A stretch of 64,000 bases of DNA from Moniliella sp. 'wahieum'. Lineage: Eukaryota. The notes under the pieces are model-generated. The model did not search any database. It had not been told where the DNA came from and worked only from the letters and a program-made list of their open reading frames with translations. How positions within the stretch are numbered: position 1 is the stretch's first letter; each line of letters starts with the position of its first letter. The position numbers and the translations under genes are program-made. Positions 4,482 to 58,865 of this stretch are shown in pieces. Where the stretch lies: positions 186,001-250,000 of the forward strand of contig RSEE01000036.1 in the NCBI GenBank assembly GCA_003971905.1. The letters are read 5' to 3'.

Positions 4482-5498
4482 GGCCAAAGGAAGGAGGAGG
4501 GGGGGCGGACTGTGCCTCACAGTGGGGGCGATAGATGGCGGCAATGGAAGAGAAGAGGAGAATCGAGACGATGGACTCGCCGCGGTCGGCAGAAGCCGTC
4601 GCACTGTGGTACTACTAAGGAGGCGCGCGTGAGCGCTCTAAGGATCTGGACACTGGCGGCCTGCGAACGGGGCTCCATCGGAAGATGAAGCAGCGATTGT
4701 TCAGAGTTCCCAATAGTAGGCCCAATAAAGCAGAGGCGAAAGGCTGGCAAGCGGCTGGCAAGGCACAATGGGTGATACGTGATGTACATGGTACACGTTA
4801 TAGATACGAGCAGCCTGCGCATGGCTTCTTCACCGACAGCTGGCATGGCGCCAGTGTACAAGAGAGGGTCTGCACCCTGGTCGTGTCCTGACACCTTTGC
4901 GTCGCGCAGAGAGGCTGTGGCGTCGTCCAGGAGACCTGGCGTATACGGCCGCTTCTTTTCACCAGCCATGGTCAAAACAAGGGACGGGCTTCTGTTGCCG
5001 CCAACTGGTATAATATCCTAATCGCCTCTCCCCCCACTGGCAGCACTAGTTGCATGCCACTAGTCACTGTGACTGTAATGCTCCCTTCGATCTTAGATCT
5101 ACGCCTCTTGTCCATCTGTGCTCGACGCACCACACCATCAACTCACGCAGCTGAAGAAACCCCGGGCGCCCGGATTCCTTGGCTGTGGGGGCACTTGGGT
5201 GTGGGAAGTGTGGCCCTGCGTCGCTTGCAGGCCGCCCTGGGCCAGGCGTCACCGGTCACCGGTCATACATCATGCAATTGAATCACGTGCAGACCGGCCC
5301 CTCCCCTGGGAGGCGGAATGGGGCCCAGAATATTTGACCATTCCGCCCTGCTTTGTGGCAAAGCAAGGCTCAGGCTGAGCCGCCTGGGACGGAGATGGAC
5401 TAGTGCGTGACTCGGCGAAGTGAAGAATCAAGCCCGGGCTCAGCCTTGCGTCCACCCACGCCCTGCTCCCACCCACCACCCGTCCCCAGCCTGCTCCC

Positions 5499-12329: not shown

Positions 12330-13095
12330 CAGGAAGCGCTAAGCTTAGCGCTACCAAGTACGCTGCCAGGGGCGCCGCAGCGCTGCACTGCCGGGCTGCC
12401 GACAGCGCTCAGCTGATATTTTCCGATGCCCGGGTCCCGCCCCACTGCCGCCCCGTGCCTGCCTGCTCCTCCTGCGCCACCTGCGCCGCCTCCCCCGCGC
12501 CCAGGCAAGCCCAGCAGATCCCACAGCGCAGCACGGCGCAAGCCTTGGCGTGTGTGCTTACCTCAGGCCTCATGCATCAGGCTCACGTATACATACCAGA
12601 CATCACCCATGCTGCCACATCATGCATCATTCATCATGGCGCACCCACCCCTTCTCAGACTCATCCATCTATCTCATCAATCTCACCAACCATCGGCCAA
12701 TCTCCTGTATGAGTGCGCGTACTCAATATTCAACCTCACCACTCCGTCTGAGTACTCAACCATCCCTGGCCCAATAAAATGGGACTGCCTCGCCCTCTCT
12801 CATGGTCATCACCTCACCGATCATGAATATCATGAACCGTCAAGTCATTCAGCACCACCAGTGTAACAAAGGAATACTGGCAGTGGACAAGTAGCATGTA
12901 GGTAAGGCCCACAACCTAAGGCCTACAGCCTAAGGCCTACAGCCTAAGGCCCAAGGCTCCATACACGCGAGCTGCAAGGCCTTTTGTCTCAAGCTCTACG
13001 AACAAGGTAGCCAACAAGCCACGCCAGGGCCACGCCCTGCGGCCTGCCGCGCCTTACGGCCTTACGACTTTTTCAGCGCTTCAATTCGGCCCTAG
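12330..13095. repeat. Cluster of TNA/4-bp-palindrome heptamer micro-arrays
   Basis: AGCGCTAAGCTTAGCGCT, TCA-GGCC-TCA-TGCA-TCA, (CCTAAGGCCTACAG)n. Confidence 0.8.
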
Positions 13096-15646: not shown

Positions 15647-15849
15647 GGGAAGAACAGTGGGCAATCCAGCGGAGGCGGGGTGTGGTGGGGCTGAACTTGG
15701 CTGGACTGCCTGTTGGGGGGATGGGTGGGGCTGCTGAGCCGGAGAGCCCGCTGAGGGTTGGTTCAAGTGCGACTTGAACGTTCACTATCTCGCCCAACTC
15801 GGGCGACACTGGCGCCGTGCGTTCCCCACAAAACCGGCGAGCCAGGCCG

Positions 15850-17280
15850 CAGCGTGACGCGTGACGCATGAGGGCGAGTGTGACGCATGGCAGCGCACAG
15901 GTGCAGTGTGCTGCGTTGCACATGGCAGGGCGCTGCACAGGGTGGGCCGGCTGGGCCTTAGCACTTAGCCGACGAGCGCAGGAGCACTGTCGCTGTGCTG
16001 CATGGCCTTGGGCCGGTCTGGCTCCGGGACCCAGTGCCCAGCACTAATCTGTGATCGGAGTGGGTCGGCCCCAACCAGCACAGCAGTGCACCACTACACA
16101 AATCCCAGAAACCAAGCCCAAAGGCAGGTCGTGCAAGTAACTGGCTTGCAGTACATAGCTTGTTGGCGCATTTGCCACCCCAGGCGTGGGGAGAACCCAA
16201 TCAATCCAGACTGGGTACTGGGATGCGTCACGCGTCACGCCTCAATCACGGCTATCAAGTTACAGATCATTCGATCATTTTGCCGGTTACCTGTTACCGT
16301 ACCGGTTACCCGCTCACCCGAATTTGCCCACATCGATAGGATCAGGGGGAAAGCTGATCGAGCTGATCGTTGCACCGTTCGAACGAACTTGAAGCCTCAA
16401 GCTTCAAGAACGATGTCGATTGACGTTCAACGTTCAACGTTCAGCACGTTCAGGCCGGCCTCAGGAACGTTCACACGTTCACAGGCCTCAGGACGTTCAG
16501 GCTGAACTTCAAGCGCTTCAAGCTTCTGCTGGCTGTACGACGGGGTTGTCGTGAGCGTTTTTACTAGTTACTAGCTAGTTACTAGTTACGCTAGTTACGC
16601 GTTACGAGGTTACGGTTACCGCAACAGCGAGCGAAGAGAGCGCGCAATACGTACCGGGGCCTGTGTACCATGTACCCGCAAATTGCGCACGGGCCATCTA
16701 AGGCGTGGCAGATCATCGATCTTCGATCATCGACCAGTATGTTAATTGCGTGTTACATGTTAATAGCGAGTAGCGCTTTGGACCGGTCCCTGGTCCCCGG
16801 TCACGCGGGCACGGTCCCGCGTCCTGAGGCAGTGCTGAGCCTCAGCGCTGAGGCGCTGAGGCCGAGGGTTGAACGTTGAAGTTTAGCGGTTCAACATTCA
16901 ACTGAACGTTCAGTCCCAGTGCATGACGAGATCCCACCTTCCGCCATCCGTCCTCGAAGTTCACTTGAACTTGAAGCTTGACTTCAAGCTTCAGCGTTTT
17001 CAACACGTTCAACCAGTATTATGCTGCCCTGCGCCGCCTCGCGCTGCCCTCTGCTGCTCCTATGGCGCTGAACACCAGCGGCCCCGCTTGGTGGGAATTG
17101 TGGGTGTCTCAGCAGGGCCGCATCGCAGTTTGTTAGTAACTTGTAGGTAGTAACTAACTAATCCCTATAGACAGACGAGCGGAGATATCGATGGGCGTGA
17201 TGCATGATGCATGTCGCATGTGGCACGCATGTTGCACTAGCATCGATCGATCATGCATCATGTGCATGCATCATGCAAGG
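15850..17280. repeat. Dense cluster of TNA/4-bp-palindrome heptamer micro-arrays
   Basis: Runs of ACGCGTC, ACCGGTT, AAGCTTC, AACGTTC, ACTAGTT, ATCGATC, AGCGCTG and ATGCATG. Confidence 0.9.
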
Positions 17281-17624
17281 AGGCGACAACCCTTTTTTTC
17301 GGAAGGTGATGGTATACACGAGAGGGACTCAGTACTCACGACGCCTTTGAAACGAGGGAGAGAGGAGCTGTTTCGACTGTTGGGACAAGGCGCGAGGCGA
17401 CAAAGGACCAGGGTGGCACTCAAGAGCATTTCTGTCCCTCGATTATGATGACACGAAGATACTCTGCCGCCAAGACGACGGCGGGCAAGGTGTTTGAGAA
17501 CCCTGTGGAAACAATCAACTGATGAAGAGTTATTCACTGGCTTACATGTCCACACCACACGCCCATTGGTAGTATCTACCCGCGCTACTTTCCGGTTTGA
17601 AAACGACGGGGGGGGGGAGGGTAA

Positions 17625-31051: not shown

Positions 31052-32627
31052 GGCAGAAAAGCGCCTGGAAGGAAGGTGGGTGGATGCAGCCGGAATGTTG
31101 ATCCGCGAGTGGGCCGCCCTATTATAGTCGGAGATATGGGTATCCAAGAGTGCCCGGGCTTGCGCTTACTGTAAAGAATGCCTCAGGGCCGAACACTGGT
31201 GGTTTTGCAGCAAAAATAACATGACGTACGCCGGGGGTCAGTGTAAGTGCGCTTAAGCTTGCACAAATACTATACGGATGGTGAATGGCGCAGTAGCACT
31301 GGAGGGGCCGTCGCAACAGCGTGGGGGCAGTGTTCCCTGGTGTGCGCGGTCTGCTCAAACAGACCCGGGTTCAACATACTCTTCAACGATCATCGCTCAT
31401 GAACCATGATGCATGATGCATGGTGCAAGAGCGTTGAACGTTGAACTGCTTGGCCTGTGCCTGGGCGTGACGCGCGTGTGGTCTGGGGCTTGGAGAAGCC
31501 CTGAGGCTGAGGCCGAGATGAGGCCAGGGGACAGGACTGCGGACAACAGCAGTGTGCCGAAGCACGGGTTTTGCGTTCGAAGAGTATGCGAAGGTAACTG
31601 CGCCTGGCCGCAGTACCCAATGTCCAGTTTCCTGCATCAGCACAGCGCCACTATGGCAGTTACCCCCGCCCTGTTTCCGTTTGGCCGATGGCCAGGGTCC
31701 ACGAACCAGATATCTTTTATCTCCCCGGGCTCACTCACCGGCTCGCCCTCTCTCTGTATTATCACGTCCACACGTCTTAAGCGCTTTAGGCCTTGGGCCT
31801 TATCGAGCCTTGTATCTCGCGGCTAACGGCTGGAGTCAAAACACTACACCAGCAGATCCCACAACTCCGCCTTCCACTCTTCTGTCCCCTCCCCCCCCGC
31901 CCCCGTTTCACCCATCACCAACAAACCCCTTCTGCCCCTGTCAAGCCTCCGCCACCTCATCGTTAATCAAACCTTTTTATCCCCTAGTACCCACGATACT
32001 ATCACCGGTCCCTCAGGACTCCACCGTCAGGAACGAACGGCATGAATTGCTCGTTCTCCCACCTCATTTACCTTTTCAGGCCTTAGGCCTAACCTTAGGC
32101 CCCCTCAGGCCTCCCGACCTTGTCGCAGGCCTAAGGCCTTCTCATCATCCAACGGGCTCAACTGGCGCCTCAATACTGCGTCCAGCAAGAAGAGCCGCGG
32201 CAACAATAAGGTTCTTGAGCGTGGCGGGTAGCATATTTGTAACGCGCAGTGATCTGTATTGTTATCTCCATGTTATCGATTAATCGGGTTATCGATTAGA
32301 TTATCGTCGCCGCAGTCATTAGTCACTATCAGTCACTTGTGACATCTCAATGTTGTGTGCATTCCATTGACAGAGCTTAAGGCTGGGACAGGGGGAACGC
32401 TACGTACATAAGATCGGCTGGGAAATCCTGTACACTTTTACGTCATAGGCACGTGCCGACCGGTGCCACGTTCCCAGCCACCCGCAGCCAGAGAATCGGT
32501 GATATTATTTGCCCTCTCCAGCGTGGAAGGGTTCCAGCGTGGAACGGTGGACCGGGGGAACGGTGGCTACGGTGGCGAAGGGGAACGGTGGCTAAGGTGG
32601 CGACGCAGCAGCTGACCGGGCCGTAGG

Positions 32628-33125: not shown

Positions 33126-33479
33126 GTAGGCCCGGTGGTCCTCCTTGTGTGACATATGACTGGAGTGACGCCTGAAGCATGATGCATGATGCATGACGTG
33201 CATGACAAGTGGGGTGCGATGCATGATGCATGATGCATGATGCATGCCCGCCAACGCCAGACAGGGGATATGCCTTAGGCGTTAGGGTTGATGTGCCGCA
33301 CGTCACGCGTCATGCACCATGCATCACATGTTGTTCACGTGACATCACATGTGACATGCAGCATGCGGACAGCAGTGTTTACACAGTTGAACGTTCAAGC
33401 GCGCTCAAGCTTCAAGAGCTTCAAGGTGCGTTCAAGGTGAACGTTCAGTTGAACACGGTGATGCGGTGATATATGATGG

Positions 33480-34126
33480 CCATCCCCGACGAACCTCCTG
33501 TGGAGAAGAGGATGGGTCGAGGCGCGGGAGGAGGGCACTGCGCACCGACTACCGCGTAATGGGGCCTGGAACAATCGGAGGATCAGGAACGGAGGTGGAC
33601 CACACGCTGCGCACCACACGGGATCGCAGGAGGCGCAGAGCGCGTACCGAAAGATGGTGCATGATGCATGCATGATGCATGATGAGAGCACCGCGACGCC
33701 GTTATAGTTGGAACGCCGGGAGAAGGACCTGCTTCAGCTGCTGGAGCAATCAGAATGCGACGAAACGCCAAATACCAGGGACGCACTCAAGAGCCGTTTC
33801 CCCCCCTGGTTTTGACGACGCGAGGATACTAGGGCACCAAGACAGAGGGCAAGATGCTCGGGCACTGGAAGGATTTGACTACTGACTGTCAATGGAAATG
33901 GTTCCTCCCTCGGATGTCTACCACGTTCATCCATGTTCACACGCGCTTCCTCGGGTATGGGAACGGATGGCGGGCATCAGAGGGTCCTGACCTCCTGGCG
34001 ATTCCGTTCCTTAAGCGGGGTTGGCGCTACCAAGCAGCACACGCAAGATGAACGGGTCGGCTTAGGCGTAGCGTTTCCCTGTCCCAGCCTTATATAAGCT
34101 CTGTCAATGATATGGATGCAATATAG
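33480..34126 (-). mobile_element. Helitron-like family copy (5' end plus ~600-bp ORF-like body)
   Basis: Its reverse complement aligns by eye to 44520-45150 and 51615-52231; 5' motif TATATTGCATCCATATCATTGACAGAGC. Confidence 0.7.
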
Positions 34127-37100
34127 CTAATACATTCCGAAGAGCAGATGATAGATGACAGAGGGGGAGACTCAGGAGCCCGCCGGGTGTGTCTACGGGA
34201 TCAGTTGCTTCAGACAAGACGTGAAGGCGACGTGGTGCGCTTTTCTGAACCTCAAAAAGTCATAAGCGTTAGCACAGCCGATGAAAAGGGGAAGTCAAGA
34301 GAGCAAAATAAAATGAAAGTGTTGTAAGAGGGAAGAACCACTAAAAGAACGCCGAACATCTGAATCTCCTTTGAAGCCGGAACAAATACTATAGAAAACG
34401 CTTCTTGCACCAAGTCCGCGTTCGTCCAGGGTTTCCCTCAGCTCGCCCTCGCCCAATGAGGATGCAAATGGCGTCACCATGCAACTGTAGGGCAGTCAGT
34501 ATATAACTTTTCCGGCTCTCCTTCTATTCTTCTTCGTTCCTATTTTGGGATGTCGCACGAATGATGTGATATACGGACGAGCATTATAAGTAGTGTACAC
34601 CGCGGAACCATAAAGCAGTCAAAGAGAGAGAGAGTTTTTTTGAGCCACAGTTATTTCCAGGTGTCAAACTTCTATATTCTTATAGCAGGCTCTTGGTGAC
34701 GAAGACTTTTCTCCCGTTTTCAAGACGGCCACACCAGGGAAGGGGGAAGACGTATTCAATATAGTTTTCCAGAAAACGTTAGGAAATTTCTCATGTGATT
34801 CTCGTCTACTTATAAACAAGCAATTTAGTGCCATCTTCTCTCACCGTTCCGGATGAATATGGGCGCTGCGTTGAGTCATGACCAGATTCTCCGTGATCAA
34901 ATGGCCGTACAATCACAGATAGCCCTTACTGACTCAAGGAGCTAAGGGGATGGATCACGAAAACACGGATGAGAGCGAGTGAAGTATCGAGTATGAAATC
35001 GGTGTCGTTCGTCCAGAGAGGACGACAGGAGATGTGACCGCAACACAGGAGCACAAAAAAGGCGCGCAGAGAGGGTGGAGGGGGGGGGGTAGTACAGTGG
35101 CGTATCCGTCCGGGCATCGTAACACAAAAGCGACTGTCTAGGGAAGCCATCATCTACACGTCCGACAGCTGTCACATATCATAGCACCTTGGTAGACTTT
35201 ACTCCCATCGTCACAATTTCCTTCTGTTGAGCGTCTCTCGTCCTTCCCCTGTTTTCGTGTTTTGATCCATGTCCTCTTTTTTTGTGTCTCAAGAACAATT
35301 CCTCCATTCTGCGGCCCTTCGTCTCGACTGAGGTCTTTGTTCTCTCGTCTTTGAGGCGTGTCTCTCCTGGGCGTATATTTCCATCCGTAGGCATCACCAG
35401 CCTCATCCCGTCTCTGTTCTCTCTGTTCTCGTCTATACGTATGTATGTAATAGTCTATCTCCACATCCCTCTGTGACATTAATCAAATGTCCCTGCCTCC
35501 ATTATCACCGGCGGTCATATGTTGGTGCCATTAGGGTATATATGTCCCGCCATGTTTACTTCCCCTTCTTTATTGTTGCAACAAGTTATGTTCGTTAGGA
35601 ATATATGGGAGCACTAATATGGATTACATCTGTATTTACAAAAGTACTTGGAGTACCTGTGTGAGGCTTATATCTTGAAAACGGGTGCAGGCGAGGATTC
35701 TCATTGCTTACATGGGGCCATCCCTCAGATGTGCACTTGCGCTTTGGGAACTAACGACCCTGACACGCACACAATGACGAGGGGACTTTAGGGAAAGTCT
35801 GAATCTGGTTGTCGGTAAGCTCAAGAGGCATACTACGTTCATTAATCGCAAATACAAATGGCAGCAAAAGTGTACTAAAGCCAGTTAACTCGCATAGCCT
35901 CTGTGTAGGAGGGAGATTGCTTCGGATGCCGACAGGTATTCATTCAGGCTGCATGGAATGGTGCCTTATATACCAGAGAAGGAGAAGCTATCACACACGG
36001 TAGATCACGCGTGAGAGGGAAAAAGACACAAAAGGGGGCGAGGAAGATCTAGAACAAGGATCATACCCACATCCTGTGGGAATGTGTGTCTGATCCGTCA
36101 CTCTGAATGGATCAACCACACGTATACACATCGCGTCCCTCGTTCTCTGAGTCTTTTGAGTATCATGCATCATGCCGAAGCTGTCGTCACATCTCTTTTC
36201 AATGCTTGCAGTGAGTTTTTGAACTATTTTATTTCTAGGTATCGGGTGGACTTGAGGAGTTCAACAGACCCACTATATATAACGGTATACTTGATGCTCG
36301 TTGACCTCTGTCATATATAGAGTATCTCACGGATCTCGCGCATATCGCTCCCATTAGCAATCTTTCATCCCGAGACACTTTCCCTGCTCTTCCGCTTCGC
36401 ACCATGTCCTTTGCTCTTACGACCGAAGCCTCCACGTGTTACTCCGGCTTGTTCGAAACCCTGTCTCTTCCGGGTATATGGAGCTAGGAAAAGGTGTCAC
36501 GGGACGACGATCGCGCTCGCTTCTCGACTTCTCTCCCTATCACTTCTCGAATCCTCTATCTTTCGCCATCGCTCGCTATCGTGACTCGGATTCTCGGCCT
36601 AACTACAAAACCCACAACAATCATCTCTTCTGCGCTCGGGCTCGTCTAAAATCCAAATACTACACATGGTTTCGACTCGGTTTATCGCCTCTCGTTTCTC
36701 GTCTCGGGTCCGCTTTACATCTTGAACCTCGCCCGTCTCTGACTTAGTGCCTCTCGTGATTGATCAACACTCCTCCCTCCTGAATCGTTTCCCCTTTTCG
36801 CTGTATAGGCCTGTTGGTCTTTCCTTTTCCCCGTCTCTTCTATAAAACCTGCCTGTTCTTAGATCCAGTTGTCATGGCCTATTAAGCTGCCCGCCATTGT
36901 TTCCCCCTCACCCTTATTCTGTAGTCACTCTCCACTCTAGAAGAACCACCTTTTAATCAGTTCGCTTGCCCTCCCTCGCCCATCATCGGAGCTCCTCGTT
37001 TTCTCGCCCAGCTCCTAACGTGCAACCTCTTTTGCAGGGGCTAGGCTCTTCCGGACGAACAGCAAAGCACTATTCGCGACCCTCCTACGTTTACGCCAGT

Positions 37101-39729
37101 GTTCTTTGGACTTTGGATATAAACAGCGTTCAGTTCTCCGTGAGTCTTATCTCCGGTAGGGAGGAAGGTCTCCGCCTGGGAGGCCAGCAACTCCCGTTAC
37201 AGAAGGTTTAGACCTTAACCACTACCATCGCTATTGCATTGCTCAATGTACATTTCAAGAGGTTCAACATCCAAATAGTGCCTCCAAATAGCAGAGAGCG
37301 CAACGTATGTTTTGGGACGGGCCCAATGCTTCATGCTTCATGGACCACTTGTAGTGTCATAGCCCTCTCTTCTATAAGGTTTGTTGCCTTCCGAGAGAAG
37401 CCTGTTACCACTGTGGTTTTTTTAATTGTTCAAACCCCGGCCTCTTCCATCAGATGTGTAGCCTTCTAAGCTTGTTAGATCTTAGACCTCAACGTAACAT
37501 CAGATTCATCATGCATCATCGATCATCGCCATTGCATTACCGGTTACCGGTTCCCGGTTACCCCGCTCAAATTTCAACCCCGTGGGTTCCCCCAGTCTTG
37601 CACAATGCTCTTGTTGGGTGGGGTACTGGTGCATTATATGAGGAAGTGCTATCGGATGTTATTCTTAGTGCCTTCGCAGCCTCGCTTGCTTCTGTTGGGG
37701 GGGGTGCTGGGGTTCCCCTACACGGCCCTCGGTGGATCGGTGACGCTCACTCACTTAACCGGGCGGAAGAGTTCCGCTCGCAGGGCGCGCACGCCCTGCT
37801 CGCTTCATCTCCCTTCTCTCTCTCCTGTCTCCTTCCCTTCACGTTACCTGAAGACTTATGGCCCACCACTTTGCCTTCACGCCTTGTCTGAAGGCTGCTT
37901 TGCAGCTGAACCATTCTATGTTGACCAGGGTCCTATGGGCCAGCCACCTCCGCGGCACTCCTGACCATCTTACTCATCCGGGCACCACACCAGTATCCCT
38001 ATCCCCTGGCCTAGTGCCGCCCTCCTTTCTTCTTCTTCTTCTTCTGATCCTCAGTCTGGGTTCAACCCAGCTCCTGTCTTCTCTCTGCCATTGCATACTG
38101 CACTTAGGACGTCGCTGGGTAACCAGGATCATTATTCTAGTAGCTTCGTCTCTGCTTCGCTCTGTCAACATCTATATGCCAGTGCGGTGGGGCTTAGACA
38201 GGAGGGGTTACCAAAACAGGGTCAGCCAACAGTCAGCATCCTCGATCAGTGGGATCCTTTATCCCACCTTCCATTCTCGTCCCTTCCCGCCTGGTTTCCG
38301 GCCAGCTGATTGAGTAATGCAGGCAACCTCTCGTCTCCACTTAGCTGCCTCATCCTCATCATCCAACCTCGTCCTCCAGCTTTCATCCGCCCGGTCACGC
38401 GAGCCTTCCTTCAGCGGCGTCGATTCGCCCTACCACAGCGTATCGCGTGGGTTCCTTTCACAGCTACGTCCACAGCCGCCCCCGCCCAGCTTCAGTCCTG
38501 GCAGTCTTTGTCTTCCACAATCTACCCGTCCCTAAGCTCCGGAGGCTTCAGACACGTTACTACCCCCCCAAGCCGGCGCATACACAGCCTTTCCGCGCGT
38601 GCGGCCGCCTCGGCTTCACGCCCAAAGGCTTCTCCTCGGCTCGGATCCATCAAATAGCAGCCAGTCACGTGCAGGTCGGCGGGCAGTAGGGTTCACATTT
38701 TCTTTGCCTGCTCGCATATAGAACTAAGAGATGGCGGGAAACGGGGTTGCTTTGCGTGGTCCCATATCTCATCATCGACTTGCGTAACATCCATCAAACA
38801 TAGTAATCATACCTATGGAACCGCGATCATCAATGAATGTCACATGTCATCTCAATTAGCCTGTAATAAAAAGTGCGTTGTCGGTCGGCCGCACAGCAAT
38901 CTCAGTTGCTGGGCCCTTTTCCCATCCCCTCCGCATGCACTACCCATGAGACAGAGTACTCACATGTCACACTTGAAGCTCTTGAAGCTTGAAGCTTACC
39001 GTATTGCCTGTGATGTATATTTTCGCAACACCCCCCCGTCAAACACATAGGCACGCCTACCTTCCCTCCTTCCATGTGGAGATATTACCACCCGATGAAG
39101 AGAATCTGACACGTTGAAGCTGTACCCGGGACTTGTTCCTTTTTCAGGACTTAAGGCCATCAGAGTTGTGGGACAAAAAACGTTGCACTTAAAAAACCTT
39201 GCTGATGCGGCGTGCATTGCATGCTCGTTTTGGCGCCAAAATCATTTAAGAACCAAGGGGCCCCGCTAGTATAAGTCGGACCCTTGGGTGCCCGCCATTG
39301 GCTTCCACAAAATGTATGTCGTCCGTGACGGGTGAATACGAATGATGCGAATGAATAACGTGTTGTTGGTATACACATGTGAGCGCGGTGCCCGGTGACG
39401 TGAACCATCTTCAATCATATGAGGGGCTTTTCTCGGTTTATTAATTATTCTCCTTCCGGTGCCCAGCAAAACATCTTGTTGGGGGTCTTGCGGTAGCATG
39501 GTATCCGCACTCGTCATGACCAAAGGGGAAGAAAGGCTGTGGAGTGTTGCGGCATCCACTTCTGTTGCTTCTAAAAATGCGCCACATCCCTTGATGGGAG
39601 CATAGTGTATACCCCTGCATGGCCGTGTGGCTCTCTCTGTGCCCTGCAAACTGAGAGGTGCAGGGCCCCGGCCGAATATAAGCTTTCGTGCCACTGGCAA
39701 CAGTAGCCAAAGCCGTAGGGATGATTTAG

Positions 39730-41045
39730 AGCCACGTCACGCGTCAGGGTACCCTCCGGTTTTTTAGTCTATCTCGTTACAAAATCGTGCTTTTTGTCAC
39801 CATCCGATGATAATACGAACAGGTGTGGCTTAGCGCTTTTAATAGGCTAAGTGCTTAGCTTGGGGTGGCGGGTTAATTAATGGACTTCCCGTACCCCGCC
39901 TTTCGAGCGAGTTTGTGGCTTAAGATTTAGTATCGATGATCGAGATGATCGTGAAATCATGCGTTACAACTAACATGCAGCACCGGGCACCGGGCACCTG
40001 AGAAATAGTTGTGGAACAGAGGCATAGAGGCTGTAACATGTAACATGTGACATGTGACATGCGATCGGTGACCTGTTGTGAACGCGTGTGTGCATGTGAA
40101 CGTTGAACATAGGAAGCAGTGCTCTCAGATCTCAAGCTGAGCCCAGCTATGATGTGGGGTTGTGGTGCTACCGGGGCAGAATACCAATGTTGCGGGACAA
40201 GAGAGCGGTGGCGCCAACGCACGTTACATTCCACCATGCTCTCGCCTTCTGTCGGTCGTGTTGAGGAAGTGCATGGCTGCTCAGCGCTCAGCAGGCATCA
40301 GCTTGTTGGACTTCAAGCTTCACTTCAGCTTCAAGTGAAGCTTGAGAACCCCAATCTCAATCTCAATGTGCCGCCACATTATCCCACCTAGAGTGTGCCC
40401 ACAGGAGATGACATCCTAAAGCGCCTCAGCCTCAGTGCTGGAAGCTTTAGATCTGAGATCTGAGATTGAGATCTGAGAGCTTGTGAATTTTGGAAGGAGC
40501 GCCGAGCAAAGGCACCCTGAATGTATGTGATCATGTGACGTCAGCATGAGAGAGAAGCCTGCTGCCTGCGGCGAGCCTGCGGGGAGACTGTGGGGAACTG
40601 TCGGAGGCTCGGAGGCAGGCACTGCATCAGTGCGGAGAAAACGGTGCGGGCGGGCGGGCGAATGTCTTGTACCCTCCTGTGCCTTGCATCAGTCCTTGTA
40701 CTGAACGTACTTGTTCCAGAGACTGCAGACGCACGTCTCCGAGAGCTCGGGCAGAGCGAGCAGGGCAGTGGAACACTTACCTTTGCAGTCACTCTCACTA
40801 GCTCCACTAGCTACTAGTTCTAGTTACTAGTCACTCATGTCATGCATCATGCATCATGCACCACGGATCATCGACCATCGACCATCGATCATCGATCATC
40901 TCCCGATGGGCCCCGAGAGCCGCAGGCGCTGGCCATCCTGAGCGTTAGCGCTCCTGCCTCAGGCCAGGCTCCGAAGCCCGCCTCACCTGGGCTTGAGGAG
41001 CTTGAAGCTTGAGGCCTGATGCATGATGCATGACGCATGAGCGAC
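39730..41045. repeat. Dense cluster of TNA/4-bp-palindrome heptamer micro-arrays
   Basis: Runs of ACATGTN, AGATCTG, ACTAGTN, ATGCATC, ATCGATC and AAGCTTG. Confidence 0.9.
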
Positions 41046-41535: not shown

Positions 41536-43436
41536 ATGAATAGCGCTGTCGCATCGTCACAGCCAGCGGCGGCACCGGAGCCTGCACCGGAAGCGGCACC
41601 GGAGCCAACCCCTTCCTCGAAACAACAAAGCGGCACTAACTAATGGCGGTTATACCAGCGCGGCCTCTGCTGGTGGCTCCGTCTCGCCCTTGACAGCCCC
41701 CACCCCCGCAGCTCATTTGGCTTGGTTGTCATTTTACCGCTGCTGCTGCTCGGTTACTCGGCAGTGATGGCCACCACGTGTCTGCTAATGCTGCTCCCCA
41801 GCTTTCCCCTGAAATTGCCCCCGAGGTGACTTCCCCATCTTGGGATTGTCCTGGCATGAAAGGTTCCTCCCCCTGCTCCACCGGGCTCGGATCGTGGTCA
41901 AAATCCACTTCATACGTTTCGTCGCCTTGTTCCGATGTTGGACTGGAGCACGAGGAATGCAGGTCTGGTTTGATCCCATCGAGCGCCAGATCGAGCAAGA
42001 TGGAGAGGCACTGTTCCTTGGTCGCTTTACTGATCGCTCGCCCTTTAATCCGGATCTCTCCGCTGACACGGGAGGGGTGCACCCAACTGGGCAGGCGAGC
42101 ACCCATGCGTCTCCCTCACACCAAGAAGCACGCGCCTTGGGCAATGCCGATGGGAGTGATGGCGGCAATCATTCTACCGGCCCTACTCTATCTCCTCATC
42201 GAATGCGTGGTGGCGCAATCCCCAATACCAATGGCAACCCACCACGCCTGGAACAATATCGTGCTGCGTTGTCGGCCAAGGTCGTTTCGCGAAAACACGT
42301 TGAGATTTGGTGCACCTCTGACCCTCCCCCCTCCAAGGCTGGGAAACCTCTTTCCGAAGACGTGGGCCCCCTAGATATCAATCGTCCCATATCACCTCTG
42401 GTTTTAGGGATGAACGATGAGCATGCGTCTTCGGGGAAGAAGCTCTGGATTCGTCTGTTCAGGCGCCTGCACAAACGCCAGAAACCCCTGCTGTCAAGTG
42501 GTGGATCCGTGACCTGGGTAGCAGTGCTGGAACGTTTGTCAACAACACACTCTCTCCAAGCCTTTGGTGGCCAGTGGGCCAACGGAGCTGCACGAGGGAG
42601 ACGTTGTGAAGCTTGGCGTTAACTATTCCAGGGGACGCAACGCCTACCAGGCAGTTCAGATGAAGGTCGAGCTGCACGACGTTGATGTGCAGACAGAGTA
42701 TGCGGCCCATGCTCGGCGCTACCTTGCCCAGCAGTTGCACAAAAACGACAGTGCCACGCCTGCAGTGGTGCCGGCGAAAGATGGCACCGCAGCCGTGCCA
42801 GCCAAAGATGGTACCCCAGCCGTGCCGATAGCTGAATGCTGTATCTGCCTCTTTGGCATGACGGTTTCTCAGAGCTTGTTTATTGCTCCCTGCAGCCATT
42901 CCTTTCACTACAAGTGCATCCGCCCTCTGTTGATGCGCCTTCACCCAGGCTTCTGCTGTCCCTTGTGCCGCAGCTTTGCCGACCTGGACGAGGAGGTGGA
43001 CGCGGTCGATATGGATGCCAAGCCAGACTCTACCCAGGCAACCTCGAACGCCCAGACAACCTCGAACGATCAGGCAACCTCGAACGATCAGGCAACCTCG
43101 AACGCTCAAGCAACCTCGAACGCTCAAGCAACCTCGAACGCTCAAGCAACCTCGAACGCTCAAGCAACCAGCCCCACCGCAGCTACTACCTCATTCGCGC
43201 CCTCTACAGAAGCAACAAGGCCGGCGAATTATAATAAGGGCAAGGCTCCCGAAGCCATCGGGGAAAGTGTGGCGGCGATGGTGGCGGCAGGAATGCTGGA
43301 CGTGTCTACACAGGGACGGAGCGCTCCTTCTGGCGAACACGTGCGCGAAGCTTCCGGGACGGATTCCTCGGCGCATTCAGGCTCGAGATCGGAGGGGATC
43401 ATGGGTCGCACGAGTCCGTCTCGTCAGCATCAATGA
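41536..43436 (+). CDS. DMA1: FHA + RING-H2 E3 ubiquitin ligase (Dma1/Dma2 family), frameshifted
   Basis: FDPIERQ..LGRFTDR, SAKVVSRKHVEIW, GSSAGTFVN, ELHEGDVVKLGVNY; RING ECCICL..FIAPCSHSFHYKCIRPLL..CPLCRSFADL. Start uncertain (ATG at 41216 or 41536). Confidence 0.9.
43035..43169 (+). repeat. Coding 18-bp tandem repeat (QATSNA/D x7.5)
   Basis: Units of consensus CARGCAACCTCGAACG(A/C)T directly after the RING domain. Confidence 0.97.
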
Positions 43437-44375: not shown

Positions 44376-44481
44376 TAAGCTCTGTCAATGATATGGTTAT
44401 AGCATATAGGAGTCGGTTTCGGCGCAGCGTTTCTTTGTCCCAGCCTTCAGCTCTGTCAACGATATGGTTGCAGTATAGGGA
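44376..44481 (-). mobile_element. Two tandem 5'-end fragments of the Helitron-like family
   Basis: AGCTCTGTCAAYGATATGGTT occurs at ~44378 and ~44449, the reverse complement of the family 5' motif. Confidence 0.65.
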
Positions 44482-44519
44482 AAATGACCAGATAATTATG
44501 CACCAGTATCCTTTACTAG

Positions 44520-45150
44520 TATATATTGCATCCATATCATGACAGAGCTTAAGGCTGGGACAGGGGAATCGCTACGTCTAAACCGAACCAATCATCTCGC
44601 GGGGATTACTTTTAGAGGCGCCACCAAAGTTAAGGAACCAGGGGGATCGCCAGGATATCAGGATGACCCCCTGGTTCCGCCATCCGGTCCCGTACCCTAG
44701 GTAGCGCGTGTGGACACGGATGAATGTGGTTGACATCCGAGCGAGGGACCATTTCCATTGAGACTCAGTAACCAAATCCTTCCAATGCGAATATCTTGCC
44801 CGCTATCTTGGTACCACCGTAGTATCCTCGCGTCGTCAAAACCAGGGGGGGGAAACGGCTCTTGAGTGCGTCCCTGGTACTTGGCGTTCTTGTCGCATTC
44901 TGCTTGTTCCAGCAGCCGAAGCAGCTTCTTCTCCCGGCGTTCCAAAGGCGAGACGCAGCGCTCTCGTGCACCACCCTCCGGTAGCGCTCTGCGCCTCCTG
45001 CGTTCCCGTGTCGCGCAGCATATGGTCCACCTCCATTCCAGATCCTCCGATTGCTCCGGGCCCTATCACGCGGTAGTCAGAGCGCTGTGCCCTCCTACCG
45101 TCCCGCCTCGTCCCATCCTCTTCCTCCACTGGCATAGGTTCGTTGTGGAT
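44520..45150 (+). mobile_element. Helitron-like family copy (5' end plus body)
   Basis: Begins TATATATTGCATCCATATCATGACAGAGCTTAAGGCTGGGACAGGGG and is colinear with 51615-52231. Confidence 0.7.
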
Positions 45151-45449
45151 GTGGGTGTCGGGGATGGAGCGCACGAACTGGGCTCCCGCACTGCCTCATG
45201 CAACGCATTAAACTTGGCATATATGGGAGCGGGTGCACACCATGATGTGCTCCAGCGAGGACATGACGCCGCACTTGCACATGCTGCGCTTGGAGCGGCA
45301 CAGCGTGCGGAGCTGGAGACCAACCTGAACCTGCTGGTCAGAGAGCTTGAGGCACGGGACAGATGGAATGGCGGAGAGCCAATTGCAGTGGCTCAGCGGG
45401 CTGCTGTGCTCAACCATATGGCGACCATCGGCAGCGTCCAGCTTCTGGA

Positions 45450-45820
45450 GCAGCTCCTGTTGACTCTAGAACGCCACAAATACCATGGACGTGCCCAAGA
45501 ACCGTTTTCTCCCTGGTTAGACAGCGGACAAGATGCCTGGTACCTGGAAGGAATGGACTCCTGAGTCTCGATGCAGATGTTTCACCGTTCGGATGTCTAC
45601 TACCACGTTCTTCATCCGTATCCACGCGCGCTTCCCCGTGTATGGGAACGGATGGCGGGTACCAGAGGGTCCTGATCTCATGGCGATTACCCTGGTTCCC
45701 TAGACGAGGATGGCGCTAACAAGCAACATATACGCCGGATGAACGAGTTGGTTCAAGCGCAACGTTTATTTGTCCCACAGCCTTAAAGCTCTGCCAATGG
45801 TATGGTTGCGCGAAGTAGAG
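45450..45820 (-). mobile_element. Diverged family copy, inverted relative to 44520-45150
   Basis: 45470-45810 matches 33765-34120 in the same orientation (KYHGRAQEPF vs YQGRTQEPF; GTATGGGAACGGATGGCGGG; AGCTCTGYCAATG). Confidence 0.65.
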
Positions 45821-46931
45821 ACTCAATACTCAATTTCTCAGCCGGCTTTCGGCGCTGAGGCGCTGAAGAAGCTTGAAAAGGCATTGATCATTTCGATCAT
45901 TTCGATCATCGATAATCGATAATCGACTATCGTTAACAACGTTGGTAAGGCTGGCCAACGCCAGAAAGAGCTTGAAGGCTGACGCTGATGCTCGAAGGCT
46001 GGCTTGAAGGCTCCAAGCTTCAAACTTGAAATATTATGCCGGCTTGCATTGCGAGATCTGTGCTGTGGTCAGAGAAATTTTGGCCATATGAAAGCCGACT
46101 GCAGTGGCTACATCCCAGGAGACGATGGTCCAAATAGGCCACAAGGGAGAGTTTGCGCAGCAGGTGGTCGAGAAGAGCGGGAAAGCGGTGGTGCACAAGA
46201 AGTAGCCGTCAATTCGGTCACTGTGCTGGACGGTCGACATGATCGACAAAAGCGAAAAAGCATATTGTTGTTGGCCATACATCACAGTAGTCATTTACAT
46301 GGCCTGAGGGCCAGACTACTAGTCAACTAGCCGAGCTTCAATAGTCACCTAGTCACACGCCGGACGGTCAAAGTCCGGTCAACAAAATGTAGGCGGTGCT
46401 ATAACATCTTCAAGGGTGGGGGGTGATGTACGTTCACATAGCACGTTCACATGTCACATGTCACAATGGTCCTGTGTCCAGCCACTAGCCCTCGGCACAT
46501 AGGCAGCGTTCAGCCGGCCCAGGGACACTGGATTCGTGCTGGGGGCGAAGCGGGTGGAGTGACTACAGTGCTGAAACTCAATGTTCCATGTTCGCCACTC
46601 GGAAGGCGGGGCGGGACGTGGCGGGACTGGTGCACAAAGAAATAGTCGTGCAGCACAGGGCCTGTGTCTGGGTCGCGCAGATCTGCGGATCCCATTTTTA
46701 TTACGCTTTCCGGCGCGCAGCGTGACGCTTGGCTGGGGAGAAATGGCCTGACCACCTTAGTCGCCCACCCAACTGTTGCCATCACGGTGGCTCCGATGGC
46801 GGAGGTGTCGATCCGGTGGTCATAAAGTCGCTGGATAGCTACCTTCCACTCCTAGGGAACCCACCACTACACTACCCCCTCTTCAACGACTCTTCCACCC
46901 CCCCCCACACATTCTTTTGCTTGTTCACACC

Positions 46932-51499: not shown

Positions 51500-51607
51500 T
51501 ATATTGCATCCATATCATTGACAGAGCTTCAATTAAGGCTGCGACAGGGAAACGCTACGCCTAAACCGACCCGCTCATCCGGCGTGTGAGGCCCGGTGGT
51601 CTCCTAG
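51500..51607 (+). mobile_element. Minimal (~108 bp) Helitron-like element: family 5' end joined to family 3' end
   Basis: TATATTGCATCCATATCATTGACAGAGC ... AGGCCCGGTGGTCTCCTAG followed by T. Confidence 0.7.
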
Positions 51608-51614
51608 TTCACGT

Positions 51615-52231
51615 CCATTTCATTGACAGAGCTTAAGGGGGACAGGGGGAACGCTACGTCTAAACCTACTAACCGTTCATCTTGCGGGGGTTACTTGGAA
51701 GCGCTACCAAGGTTAAGGAACCGGCGGGATCGCCAGGATATCAGGACCCTCCGGTTCTCGCCATCCGGTCCCGTACCCTAGGAAGCGCGTGTGGACACGG
51801 AGGAACGTGGTTGACATCCGAGCGAGAACCATTTCCACTGAGACTTCGTAGCCAACTCCTTCCAATGCGCAAACAACTTGCCCGCTGTCTTTTGGTGCCG
51901 TAGTATCCTCGCGTCGTCAAAACCAGGGGGAGTTCCCCTAACCTGCTCTTCCCAGAGTGCGTCCCTGGTACTTGGCGTTCTTGTCGCATTCTGCTTGTTC
52001 AAGCAGCAGAAGCAGCTCTTCCTCTCCGGCGTTCCAAGGGGGTTGCGGCCCGGGTGCTCTCATGCACCACCCTCCGGAACGCGCTCTGCGCCCCCAGCGA
52101 TCCCGTGTCGCGCAGCGTGTTGTCTACCTCCATTCCTGAGAGCCTCCGAGTGCTCCGGGCCCCATCACGCGGTAGTCGGTGCGCTGTGTCCTCTGTCTCC
52201 TGCCATCTCTTCCCCACCATAGGTTCGTTGC
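51615..52231 (+). mobile_element. Helitron-like family copy (5' end plus body)
   Basis: Colinear with 44530-45150, including shared GTAGTATCCTCGCGTCGTCAAAACCAGGGGG and GAGTGCGTCCCTGGTACTTGGCGTTCTTGTCGCATTCTGCTTGTTC. Confidence 0.72.
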
Positions 52232-53167
52232 GGACTACTTCTCGTCCAATAGGGCTTTCTTCGTCCTGAGTTACTGTGACATGTGGCTGTGGGCGCCCAC
52301 CGAGGACAGCGATCAATATTTTCATTCGCTTTAAGCTTCTCTCTGTAAGACCGGAGAAACCCAAGGGGTTGGGTGATGAACCTCTGGAAATGTAGAGCAA
52401 TGCAATCGCGGTGGTGGTGGTTAGGTCCTTATGCCACACCTAGAGGAGACAGGGGTTCAAACAAGCCTGCAGTGAGTTAACGTGCAGCTTCGGAGGTCAA
52501 ATCAAACAGGGGCGAAGGGTGATGATCGAGGAGGTGATGCCTTGGCCTAAGTACGGGACCGCGGGTCCCAACAGTTCAAGTTTTGCTTCAAGCTTCGCGA
52601 GGTTCATCACCTCGCTTCTGCACGGAGTATGTGGTGGGCTCAAGCTTCAAGTCTATAAAAAAGAGAAGATGAATTACTATTCCGAGAGAGGAGAGAGCCC
52701 GTGTAGATGAGTGGATAACAACAGCGTTGAAAGTGACCTAGTACTTAGTAGTGACAAGTGCGACGCCCTGCGAGGCCCCACAAGAGGCATCTCATGCATC
52801 ATGCATGATGCAGGTGTGGGGGATATATATTATCTGGTGTGCCTAATACTTCTGTGCCATGTGCATGAGGCCGGCCTGAGGGGCATGAACGTGAACCGTC
52901 AACGTGTGAACGTTGAGTACGTTGAACGTGAAGAACTTCCCACAGTCAACCACATGGGAATCGGGCCTCTCCCACTACAAGATAAGACGAACCAATTCTG
53001 TTCTTTGTTCTACATTCTTGAAAGTGTGCTACCAGTGGCACTTATATGTATGACACGCGAGTAGAGTATTCGAGGTAGCCGTCAGTATAGTAGCCTGTTA
53101 CACTTTAAGTGGCAAGATGTGGTGGTGGACGCAGTGGCTACCTGACATGTGACACACTCTGTTTCAC

Positions 53168-54855: not shown

Positions 54856-55081
54856 CGAGGAGGACCACCGGCCTACGGCCCGGTCGGCTGGGCTTCGCCC
54901 CAGCTGGTGCTGCGTCGCCACTTAGCCACCGTAGCCACCGTTCCCCCATCGCCACCGTTCACCGGCCACGTTCACGCTGGAAGAGACGAAATAATCACCG
55001 ATTGTTGCTGGTGGCTGGGACGGGTGGCTGCGCCACCCGGGCTGACGTGAGGCTTATGTAAAAGTGCACAGGCGTTTCCCA
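54856..55081 (-). mobile_element. Helitron-like 3' portion
   Basis: Reverse complement is homologous to 32420-32627 and ends ACCGGGCCGTAGGCCGGTGGTCCTCCTCG-T. Confidence 0.7.
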
Positions 55082-57144: not shown

Positions 57145-57624
57145 GGGATGAATGTGTTCAGGAGGGGAACTGAGGCCTCAGCCTGGGGCACCTGGGCTAG
57201 GCACGGAGGATGTGGCGACTAGAGTGGTGTGTACCGGAGTAGCAACAGTATAGCGCTACGGAAACGGTCGTGGCCAGGTGAATGGAAGCGAGCAGAGCTG
57301 GCTGTGGCGGCGGCAGTGGTGGAGGGTCGGAGCACAGATGGTCGTGTGTTAAGCTTGAAGGCAAAGGCAGCCGTGCGAGGACCAAGAAAAGGCAGATATG
57401 CAGGACCGAGTATCTTCCAAAGCAAGAAAGCAGCCGAGAGTGCTCAGGCTCTGGAGCGCTGAGACTCAGCTCTGGATCCGAGACGGAAGCCCTAGCTTGG
57501 AGGACTGTGCCAGGGCTGTGCCCTGTTTTGCACTATGTACCTGCAGGCTCTTGCGGCGCTTTGGCCATCGCCTCTGCCTGGCACCCGTGTGCAGGTACAA
57601 TTGTCCGCCATATGTACCCCAGGT

Positions 57625-58129
57625 CACATCCATCATCGATCGATCGGGACCTAAGCCTAAGCGCTAAGCTCTCTAAGATCTAAGGGTCTAGCGCCTAAGC
57701 CTAAGGCCCAAGGGCTATCGATCATCGATTATCGGCTATCTTATATCACTTGTTCGATGATCATCGGTCACTAGTCACTAGCTAGTCGCTTGAAGCTTGA
57801 CGCTTAATGCTTGATGCATGATGGATGCATGATGGCCGATCGCTGATCTCGGATCTCAGCCGTGAGCCGATGCACCAGGGTGCGCCCTGGTGCCCCGTTG
57901 TCGCAGTTCCCGTTGTCCCGCAGTTCCCGGAGCTCGTCGACGACGCGTTCGCCACCAGGGACGCACTTCGCTGCCACACATGCATGCATGATTGATACTT
58001 GATCAAATTTCAAATCGATGAACCGATGAACCGTACGCGTACAGATCGATGATCTCGATGATCGAAGGTCATTCAGATGAGCGTTGAAATTTGAAACGTT
58101 GAACTCGTACGCTTGCGATTAATGATTAA
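57625..58129. repeat. Cluster of TNA/4-bp-palindrome heptamer micro-arrays
   Basis: TAAGCGCTAAG, ATCGATCATCGAT, TCACTAGTCACTAG, TGAAGCTTGA, TGATGCATGA, TCAAATTTCA, ATTAATGATTAA. Confidence 0.85.
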
Positions 58130-58865
58130 CTAGAGGACCCCAGGGCTTAAGGCCCGACTTGTGGGTGCTACGTTCCATAGTTCCCTCGTCCACCGTTCCA
58201 TCGTCGCCACCGTAGCCACCGTTCCCCCATCCACCTAGCCACCGGTCCACTTTCGTTATTTCACCTACTATAAATAGCGTCCTGGCGGGTTTGGTTTAGC
58301 GCTGCACAAAACGTGTGATAAGACCACTCTGGTTTTGGCACAGTCGGGGCTAAGGCGAGGGGGAGACCAGGGTCGAGACTTTTCGTGGGGAAGGAGCAAG
58401 AGTAGAGGACATAGTGCGAAGTAGAAGGGACAGGGAAAGTGCGAGACGCTCGGGACGAAGAAATTGGAAATGGGAGCGAGATCAGGAAAACTATATGACA
58501 GTAGTCGGTTTTTGGCATAATAGTTTTTTGGTTATATATGACGACGCCAGGATACTGTGCCATGCACCTAGACGGCGAGCAAAAATGTTTGGGCACTTGA
58601 ATGAATGAAACAATGAGAATTACTGAGTCTCCATGGAGATGCCTCACAGCTGTGGTGCCTACCACGCTCATTCGTGTCCACACACCGGCTATCTCCGGTT
58701 TGGAAACGGATGGCGGAGCCCAGAGGGTCCTCATCTGCTGGCGGTTCTTCTGGTTTCCTAACCAGATTTAGCGCCAACAAGAAACACACGCCAGATGAGA
58801 TGGGTTTAGGCCCAGCGTTTCTTTGTCCCACCCTGAACCTCTCTGTCAATGATATGGTTACAATT
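58130..58865 (-). mobile_element. Putative complete non-autonomous Helitron-like element (~735 bp) with unique interior
   Basis: Family 5' motif (reverse complement of CTCTGTCAATGATATGGTTACAAT) at ~58840-58864, GGTGG-rich tract at 58185-58250, and GGGCCTTAAGCCC hairpin then CTAG-T at 58133-58130 on the minus strand. Confidence 0.6.

Follow-up and report, generated by a model that had tools for sequence, protein, structure and literature searches.

Between the genes of a 64,000-nucleotide stretch of DNA from Moniliella sp. 'wahieum' (assembly GCA_003971905.1, contig RSEE01000036.1, positions 186,001 to 250,000 of the forward strand; hereafter the window) lie numerous 7-bp units in which a T-N-A trinucleotide alternates with a 4-bp palindrome, frequently as tandem arrays. 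In most of these units, the palindromic core is a mirror-doubled copy of the two bases that flank the T-N-A. On balance, we consider the heptamers to be probably stacked scars, left by the excision of a cut-and-paste DNA transposon or by a transposon-derived nuclease. A chain of such heptamers at 40998–41040 had been described in a first-pass annotation of the window, and its sequence reads as given there.

Palindromic cores and their flanks

Each unit is written here as L-TNA-core-TNA-R, where L and R are two nucleotides (nt) each, and expected counts were obtained by third-order Markov resampling. A 4-bp palindrome between two copies of the same TNA was observed 78 times compared to 3.1 expected. 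In 68 of these 78 units, the core equals the dinucleotide flanking the TNA joined to its reverse complement (rc), taking the form R + rcR in 26 units, rcL + L in 22, and both in 20, with Markov expectations of 0.27, 0.13, and 0.00, respectively. A fit to either flank would occur by chance in 12% of cases (p = 1.6e-51 for the observed fraction). Given that 68/78 cores are mirror-doubled flanks, the symmetry is copied from the flank in a single step, in the manner of the palindromic (P) nucleotides found at an opened DNA hairpin.

Among the 47 isolated units, the core matches both flanks in five, one flank in 32, and neither in ten, compared to 9.4, 23.2, and 14.4 were the two sides independent (p = 0.01). 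In 22 of the 48 one-sided units, the opposite flank shares none of its two bases with the core, and the one-sided units are therefore not decayed symmetric duplications.

At spacings of 8, 9, and 11 bp, both copies of nn-TNA-nn are kept, with one, two, or four mirror-image bases lying between them. The single inserted base is the complement of its neighbor in 6/6 cases, while 7/9 of the 2-nt inserts are reverse complementary to L or R, a fit that includes three asymmetric sites (GC-TGA-TC, AG-TTA-CG, and GA-TCA-TT); the +4 nt class comprises two cases. For 15 other center types, the same fractions are at chance level, 13/27 for +1 nt and 10/95 for +2 nt (Fisher p = 0.024 and 2.7e-5). Full duplications of L-TNA-R thus comprise 20 symmetric, two plain (R + L), six +1 nt, nine +2 nt, and two +4 nt cases, and in a further 48 units one copy of the site is shortened by 2 nt. 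We also noted 8-bp arrays of GCGCTGAG (two copies) at 16845–16862 and 45851–45866, which belong to the +1 nt class (GC-TGA-GG with C between); at 16839, the 8-bp arrays make a 16-bp perfect palindrome, GCCTCAGCGCTGAGGC.

The enrichment is confined to T..A spacers, with the best of the 15 other outer pairs reaching 14 units versus 4.8 expected, and a core length of 4 is the sole strong enrichment (78 versus 2.6), accompanied by a slight excess at lengths 8 and 11. Exact 7-bp arrays hold a 6-bp palindrome in 31 of 41 cases and all 31 take the form A-NNNN-T; the array unit is therefore T-N-A plus a 4-bp palindrome. Identical 6-bp palindromes recur 26 times at a spacing of 7, versus 0–5 times at each other spacing from 6 to 15. 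The N of the TNA is homogeneous within chains (78 same versus 14 complementary). Mirror junctions (TGA-core-TCA) number 14 versus 2.8 expected and, together with perfect palindromes of up to 18 bp, may represent long hairpin tracts or template switches. All 16 possible 4-bp palindromic cores are present in the window.

A general excess of perfect palindromes was dropped as an explanation, given that even palindromes of at least 10 bp are only mildly in excess (87 versus 63 expected). Neither isolated A-N4-T hexamers (254 versus 208) nor isolated symmetric TNA heptamers (157 versus 169) showed notable enrichment. Separately, there is a mild enrichment of T-N-A pairs whose core is a 3-nt odd palindrome (18 versus 8.8 and 19 versus 10.1), and odd palindromes of 13–15 bp (..TCAGGCTGA.. 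and ..TGAGCCTCA.., TCA + GGC + TGA) recur at 5367, 16495, 16834, 22427, and 41046; the latter could represent either long hairpin tracts or an additional class of scar whose junction is 3 nt long.

The units are intergenic. None of the 78 falls within the open reading frames (ORFs) supported by Pfam matches (11,670 bases), where 14.2 were expected (p = 1.5e-7), and they group in about a dozen intergenic patches, with several clusters positioned upstream of ORF starts. The density of the putative scars is ~1.5 per kb in the window. Units with other cores occur at 0.94 per kb here compared to 0.115 per kb in 119 metagenome loci containing (TGATGCA)3 (278.5 kb in total); the heptamer phenomenon is lineage-specific.

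Mixed chains, paralogous sites, and gene content

The first-pass annotation also reported chains of different palindromes in register at 12563–12579, 37509–37525, 46443–46463, and 57791–57821, all four of which proved correct on reading. With their flanks, and together with the chain described above and its neighbor, these loci are:

40992–41040, forward strand: the chain of the first-pass annotation, CTTGAGG-AG-CTTGA-AG-CTTGAGG-CC-TGA-TGCA-TGA-TGCA-TGA-CGCA-TGA
40806–40900, forward strand: companion arrays with the opposite spacer strand, 100 bp upstream of the 40992 chain, TTA-CTAG, TCA-TGCA (three copies), and TCA/CCA-TCGA (five copies)
37507–37527, forward strand: mixed chain CA-TCA-TGCA-TCA-TCGA-TCA-TC, in which the left core mirrors CA and the right core mirrors TC
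57789–57823, forward strand: chain CT-TGA-AGCT-TGA-CGCT-TAA-TGCT-TGA-TGCA-TGA-TG, with five TNA in register at 57791–57821
12561–12581, forward strand: mixed chain CC-TCA-GGCC-TCA-TGCA-TCA-GG, with the unit at 12563 one-sided and that at 12570 lacking a flank match
46443–46465, forward strand: ACGT-TCA-CATG-TCA-CATG-TCA-CA, in which each CATG core is the right flank CA followed by TG

The chain at 40992–41040 reads as a stack of about seven copies of a TGA-centered site, in which AG is the reverse complement of CT, CC that of GG, and CA that of TG. The 7-mer CTTGAGG occurs twice (40992–40998 and 41008–41014), and the AGCT at 41003 agrees with its left flank CT. The TGA that had been seen to stay in phase we read as the center of a duplicated 7-bp target. 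The succession AGCT>GGCC>TGCA had been attributed to paired compensatory substitutions; these cores are instead the mirror-doubled flanks CT, GG, and TG rather than derivatives of one another, and the apparent compensatory substitutions are a one-base difference in the flank, mirrored at the next event. The chain mostly fits the scar model, provided that a right flank of GG later became TG, or that two neighboring sites fused. In the companion arrays, the final core (TCGA) is the right flank TC extended by GA, and positions 40839–40870 form an inverted-repeat pair (I24) with 41003–41034 at 81% complementarity.

Under the scar reading, unlike flanks would yield two palindromes sharing one T-N-A, with the left-flank core on the left and the right-flank core on the right. 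The chain at 37507–37527 fits this exactly. For 57789–57823, the model predicts from the site CT-TGA-TG the cores AGCT (from CT), TGCT (with both copies of the site kept), and TGCA (from TG); each of these was found, in the predicted left-to-right order, with CGCT as a one-base variant, so that this chain also fits exactly, the asymmetric TGCT included as R + L. The same chain resembles 41000–41039, with 85% identity across 40 nt (family D2).

Different palindromes in register do exist, then, and exceed the null expectations, but they are few. Adjacent pairs in strict chains comprise four with different palindromic cores, 13 with identical cores, and 11 with a palindrome beside a one-mismatch core, where point mutation of homogeneous arrays predicts ~0.2 different-palindrome pairs (an estimate from the pair counts). 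Among pairs with two mismatches, 4/6 are palindromic versus 11% expected (p = 0.002). Of 130 close pairs of different A-N4-T hexamers, 39 are spaced by a multiple of 7, versus 20.5 expected (p = 3.5e-5), the pairs being mutually non-independent. Mixed chains are accordingly more frequent than point mutation of homogeneous arrays plus chance adjacency would produce, and the argument that mixed but symmetric cores need a symmetry-enforcing process holds, as slippage alone cannot yield them.

A comparison of filled and empty sites is available within the window owing to a dispersed repeat of ~650 bp, a family with three long copies and 74–84% identity between copies:

33481–34125, forward strand: long copy A of the dispersed repeat
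44522–45151, reverse strand: long copy B
51614–52193, reverse strand: long copy D
45519–45809, forward strand: partial copy
58623–58864, forward strand: partial copy
33658–33685, forward strand: filled site in copy A, CA-TGA-TGCATGCA-TGA-TGCA-TGA-TGA-GA, 21 nt longer than copies B and D (alignment A1)
52056–52068 (approximate, counted from the alignment), reverse strand: empty site in copy D, GGTGC-ATGA-GAGC, a single CA-TGA-GA (pair I11)
44960–44972 (approximate), reverse strand: empty site in copy B, GGTGC-ACGA-GAGC

Copies B and D carry a single site at the position homologous to the stack in copy A, the three being paralogs rather than orthologs. Copy A has three additional TGA, and its cores, TGCA and TGCATGCA, derive from the left flank CA; position 33662 was classed '8 PP'. 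The paralogous empty site supports the scar reading. The ~650-bp repeat has no Pfam match and no long ORF, and could represent either the promoter of a gene family or a mobile element in decay. Its copies adjoin heptamer clusters, and it ends in a conserved module (..CTCTGTCAATGATATGG..) that is also found alone at 32350–32405, 44380–44474, and 51500–51660, and twice in an inverted pair ~175 bp across (44413–44586).

The main clusters of TNA-palindrome-TNA units, none with an assigned strand, are:

15775–17338: the largest, with 18 units, upstream of the glycogen synthase gene
39438–40476: 13 units
33180–33682: 11 units
57171–58094: 10 units in two groups (57171–57358 and 57658–58094)
52640–53152: five units, including an 18-bp perfect palindrome, TGCATCATGCATGATGCA, at 52795

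Within the largest cluster, the cores at 16423–16500 can all be traced to a single site, GT-TCA-GG: they are built of ACGT, which mirrors its GT, and GGCC, which mirrors its GG.

Pfam and ORF matches identify the window as eukaryotic and fungal, with a G+C content of ~55%. Its long ORFs match LTV1, G-protein beta, a GATase/IGPS fusion, eukaryotic glycogen synthase, and condensin Cnd3, as well as MFS and amino-acid permeases, a multicopper oxidase, and a RING finger protein. The LTV1 ORF shares 77% and 73% identity with the two top assemblies and 44% with Tilletiaria anomala, followed by Malassezia, Ustilago, and other Ustilaginomycotina. No Rfam family or tRNA was found in the window. The window minimum of G+C (0.47) lies at 34001–36000, a segment almost without ORFs of at least 105 a.a and within a gene-poor stretch of ~9 kb (32.3–41 kb) that holds several heptamer clusters. 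An 18-bp tandem repeat (43035–43169, 7.5 copies, 94% matches) in the last ORF of the RING-finger gene (42564–43436, forward strand) codes for a repeated ATSNAQ-like hexapeptide. Finally, 32472–32627, 54872–55020 (inverted), and 58171–58250 share a degenerate 8–9 and 25-bp repeat (..ACGGTGG.. / ..CCACCGT..) that bears no relation to the T-N-A heptamers.

Probable excision scars and competing explanations

The combination of direct target duplication with flank-templated mirror bases leads us to read each unit as a donor site after flank-hairpin excision, and from this anatomy we infer a transposon, its hairpin chemistry, and an order of events. The element would insert and duplicate a 7-bp target centered on T-N-A (nn-TNA-nn, N mostly G or C). 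On excision, the flanks would each be sealed as a DNA hairpin, as in hAT, Mutator, and RAG chemistry, and host enzymes would open the hairpin ~2 nt from its tip to give a self-complementary 4-nt overhang, composed of the two flank bases beside T-N-A and their reverse complement (R + rcR on the left end, rcL + L on the right end). With the nick at 2 nt, the duplex DNA would stop exactly at T-N-A; Artemis, for its part, prefers to open hairpins 2 nt from the tip. The usual outcome would be the retention of one overhang and the removal of the other, producing L-TNA-[R+rcR]-TNA-R or L-TNA-[rcL+L]-TNA-R, and one round trip would lengthen the site by exactly 7 bp, with N unchanged and a core that is palindromic. 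If the templated half of the second overhang were retained as well, the gain would be +9, and if both overhangs were retained whole, +11, whereas a nick 1 nt from the tip would give +8 and opening at the tip a plain duplication. The scar would carry new T-N-A sites at which later visits could add units in the same register, a site with differing flanks would come to hold two different palindromes side by side, and ordinary slippage could afterwards alter the copy number too.

Two other products were considered and set aside. Plain 7-bp duplication of any TNA-centered site accounts for only the two plain R + L cases, and the duplication rate of asymmetric sites is 0.8%. The idea of a 14-bp primary product, formed by duplicating a symmetric heptamer, was unsupported by one-mismatch extension analysis and gave way to the one-sided flank pattern.

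Several observations count against the excision reading. Ten of the 78 palindromic units match neither flank, including GGCC at 41010, which breaks the strict local rule (its right flank is TG, not GG), and TGCA at 12570, which the rule leaves unaccounted for in a chain (12561–12581) whose GGCC agrees with both flanks; a further ~24 non-palindromic same-N units over background obey no rule. The ~100 units above background in 64 kb would require very heavy transposon traffic. Inverted termini flanked by a 3-bp TNA repeat gave two chance-like matches in the window, neither convincing, those flanked by a 7-bp nnTNAnn repeat gave four, all within arrays, and 0/65 ORF translations in the window match a transposase family. 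The target nnTNAnn differs from the hAT consensus as generally given (nTnnnnAn) and agrees with no family whose preference was checked. PIF/Harbinger and NuwaII, which duplicate T-N-A (PMC4482050), include mPing, for which precise excision is reported (PMC4561436). Units with non-TNA spacers are themselves repeated (CCA-TCGA, 2.9 copies at 40869–40888; GCA-CCGG, 2.7 copies at 39980–39998), and slippage therefore acts too, blurring the record. All of the statistics, moreover, are drawn from this one window.

A stronger version of the scar reading, which we regard as doubtful, is that the scars are self-feeding: each excision would write a new symmetric T-N-A heptamer that serves as a better landing site than its predecessor, and the resulting 'footprint satellites' would by now account for a visible portion of the intergenic DNA of this lineage. 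The activity may then be a transposase-derived nuclease without an element, amounting to a (semi-)programmed writer of palindromic heptamers in regulatory DNA.

The main rival, unlikely in our judgment, is hairpin-assisted slippage, whereby symmetric heptamers (xy-TNA-y'x') loop out during replication or flap processing and duplicate in tandem. The core would then be the mere junction of symmetric units, and mixed chains would arise by mutation or by the fusion of neighboring arrays at a shared spacer. Consistent with this, fully symmetric TNA heptamers have a copy matching at least 6/7 positions at ±7 in 84/326 cases (25.8%), compared to 20/570 and 24/513 for half-symmetric and 12/1540 for asymmetric heptamers; the two bases past the terminal TNA match the core at 63–69%, falling to 31–42% thereafter; run phases fit in 42/73 cases versus 20.9 expected; and that slippage happens is evident from the variant units and from higher-order periods of 14 bp. 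However, by nearest-neighbor DNA energies, A-N4-T/TNA units rank lowest in stability among the four outer-pair classes (mean −2.96 versus −5.3 and −5.4 kcal/mol), and spacers of 3–4 nt are favored over 1 nt; generic hairpin thermodynamics was dropped on this account. Symmetric ANT, CNG, and GNC heptamers are almost never duplicated (1/226, 0/250, and 2/268; 3/744 in total), P6+3 and P8+1 arrays are absent from the window, as are palindrome+1 units of any other length, and hairpin slippage fails to predict the one-sided matches, the opposite flanks sharing 0/2 bases with the core (22/48), or the mirror inserts between asymmetric 7-bp sites.

The same scar anatomy could be produced without an element, if a domesticated transposase or another site-specific nuclease repeatedly broke T-N-A in open intergenic chromatin and the hairpinned ends were rejoined. 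This would suit a window in which neither an element nor a transposase was found, yet a break alone gives no 7-bp duplication, the direct duplication of L-TNA-R being the mark of a staggered-cut insertion, and no candidate gene was seen in the window; we consider it improbable.

Selection had been put forward in the first-pass annotation as another source of symmetry, and the units might be cis-regulatory arrays of binding sites (bZIP-like TGA/TCA half-sites, MluI-box-like ACGCGT) held symmetric in this way. Their intergenic position, with several clusters upstream of ORF starts, is in keeping with such a role, and some of the hexamers are similar to known fungal motifs. The core, however, tracks the local flank in 68/78 units and not a motif, 16/16 possible cores occur, exact tandem identity speaks of recent duplication rather than conservation, and the array is missing from a paralog at the same place, all of which render regulation quite improbable as the origin of the arrays.

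There is very little likelihood that the cores are remnants of element ends, left by an element that duplicates 3 bp (T-N-A) and deposits 2 nt from each of its inverted ends (TNA + WX.X'W' + TNA), or conversely by a 4-bp palindromic duplication that leaves T-N-A. T-N-A duplications are known in fungal PHIS elements, as far as the part of that source available goes (PMC4482050), and 3 + 4 = 7. End remnants would not be expected to follow flanks as 68/78 cores do, which largely refutes the idea, and at least 11 distinct end dinucleotides would be required; in addition, mPing (PIF/Harbinger) excises precisely according to the portion consulted of PMC4561436, and the run phases and lengths lack core-TNA-core as an elementary form. 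The homogeneity of N in chains (78 same versus 14 complementary) is a further difficulty and, with the phase, led us to discard the variant with a 4-bp palindromic duplication and a T-N-A remnant. Chance adjacency plus point mutation of ordinary microsatellites can be dismissed, for although a spacing of 7 shows no overall enrichment of different palindromic 4-mers (224 versus 178–221 at other spacings), the class, in-register, symmetry, and flank-rule enrichments refute it.

Relation to known footprints and repeats

Were the scar reading true, much of the intergenic repeat content of this fungus would be a fossil trace of transposons coming and going, as opposed to slippage noise or a regulatory code, and one legible base by base, as each unit names its source flank. 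Past insertion and excision cycles could be counted from sequence alone, and the target preference (nn-TNA-nn) and the position of host hairpin opening (2 nt from the tip) could be deduced without the element in view. It would also serve as a caution that an intergenic excess of palindromic 'motifs' can stem from repair, and surveys of 1–6 nt motifs would overlook the whole 7-nt class. Single footprints of this kind are already textbook; for in-register stacked heptamer arrays with a 7-bp T-N-A-centered target, no description was found in a literature search of incomplete coverage and main texts only. The palindromic microsatellites of Fusarium mitochondria, in the part of the report available, are a different matter (PMC7218506).

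Slippage arrays share with the heptamers their head-to-tail tandem units, one-unit copy steps, and 14-bp higher-order periods. However, slippage copies identically, leaves array boundaries in arbitrary phase, and has no need for T-N-A, dyad symmetry, or mirror junctions, whereas the arrays here show a phase bias (42/73 versus 20.9), dependence on TNA and symmetry, and mirror junctions, all of which set them apart from slippage microsatellites. Slippage clearly contributes secondarily.

The hAT superfamily is characterized by an 8-bp duplication, an nTnnnnAn preference, and a transposase with BED and hAT-dimerization domains; here, the duplication is 7 bp (nnTNAnn), and none of the 65 ORF translations matches a transposase family. 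A study from 2003 that dealt with heterologous transposition in Ustilago maydis reportedly mentions footprint-like sequences in that genome, and was not recovered in our literature search. Members of hAT, Transib, RAG, and a Mutator-like element (MULE) are described, in the source available in part, as making hairpins at the flanks, which may be opened by Artemis or other host enzymes, with end joining leaving footprints (PMC5499845). Like the footprints of hAT elements (Ac/Ds, Tam3, Hermes) and V(D)J P nucleotides, as far as the excerpts of PMC4561436 and PMC5499845 describe them, the units keep both target copies, with flank-templated palindromic additions between. Both target copies are retained here and the junction bases are flank-derived, and an occupied site (an element with a matching duplication) was not found within the 64-kb window. 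Unlike hAT footprints, the target is 7 bp and T-N-A-centered, one outcome dominates, and the scars are stacked in register, with no element seen in the window.

Among elements with a similar duplication length, the hAT7 and Kyakuja elements make 7-bp duplications in Basidiomycota (PMC12730594, seen in part), sharing both the fungal phylum and the length with our units; theirs are from Pucciniales and Laccaria, not Ustilaginomycotina, and the comparison is by duplication length only. PIF/Harbinger and NuwaII (together PHIS) share the T-N-A-centered target, with NuwaII, which is present in fungi, targeting C|TNA|G with a 3- or 5-bp duplication according to the available part of PMC4482050, and with mPing excising precisely via overhangs from the duplication according to that of PMC4561436. 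Unlike the PHIS elements as these portions present them, the duplicated stretch here extends 2 nt to either side of T-N-A, with scars that are imprecise, which places the units outside PHIS, and the same portions of PMC4482050 and PMC4561436 describe neither a 7-bp duplication nor flank-derived palindromes. The Tc1/mariner footprint, TA + C(A/T)G + TA, is likewise a scar of fixed length flanked by a duplicated target; its inserts, however, come from the element ends and are constant, whereas those in the window are copied from the local flank, variable, and palindromic.

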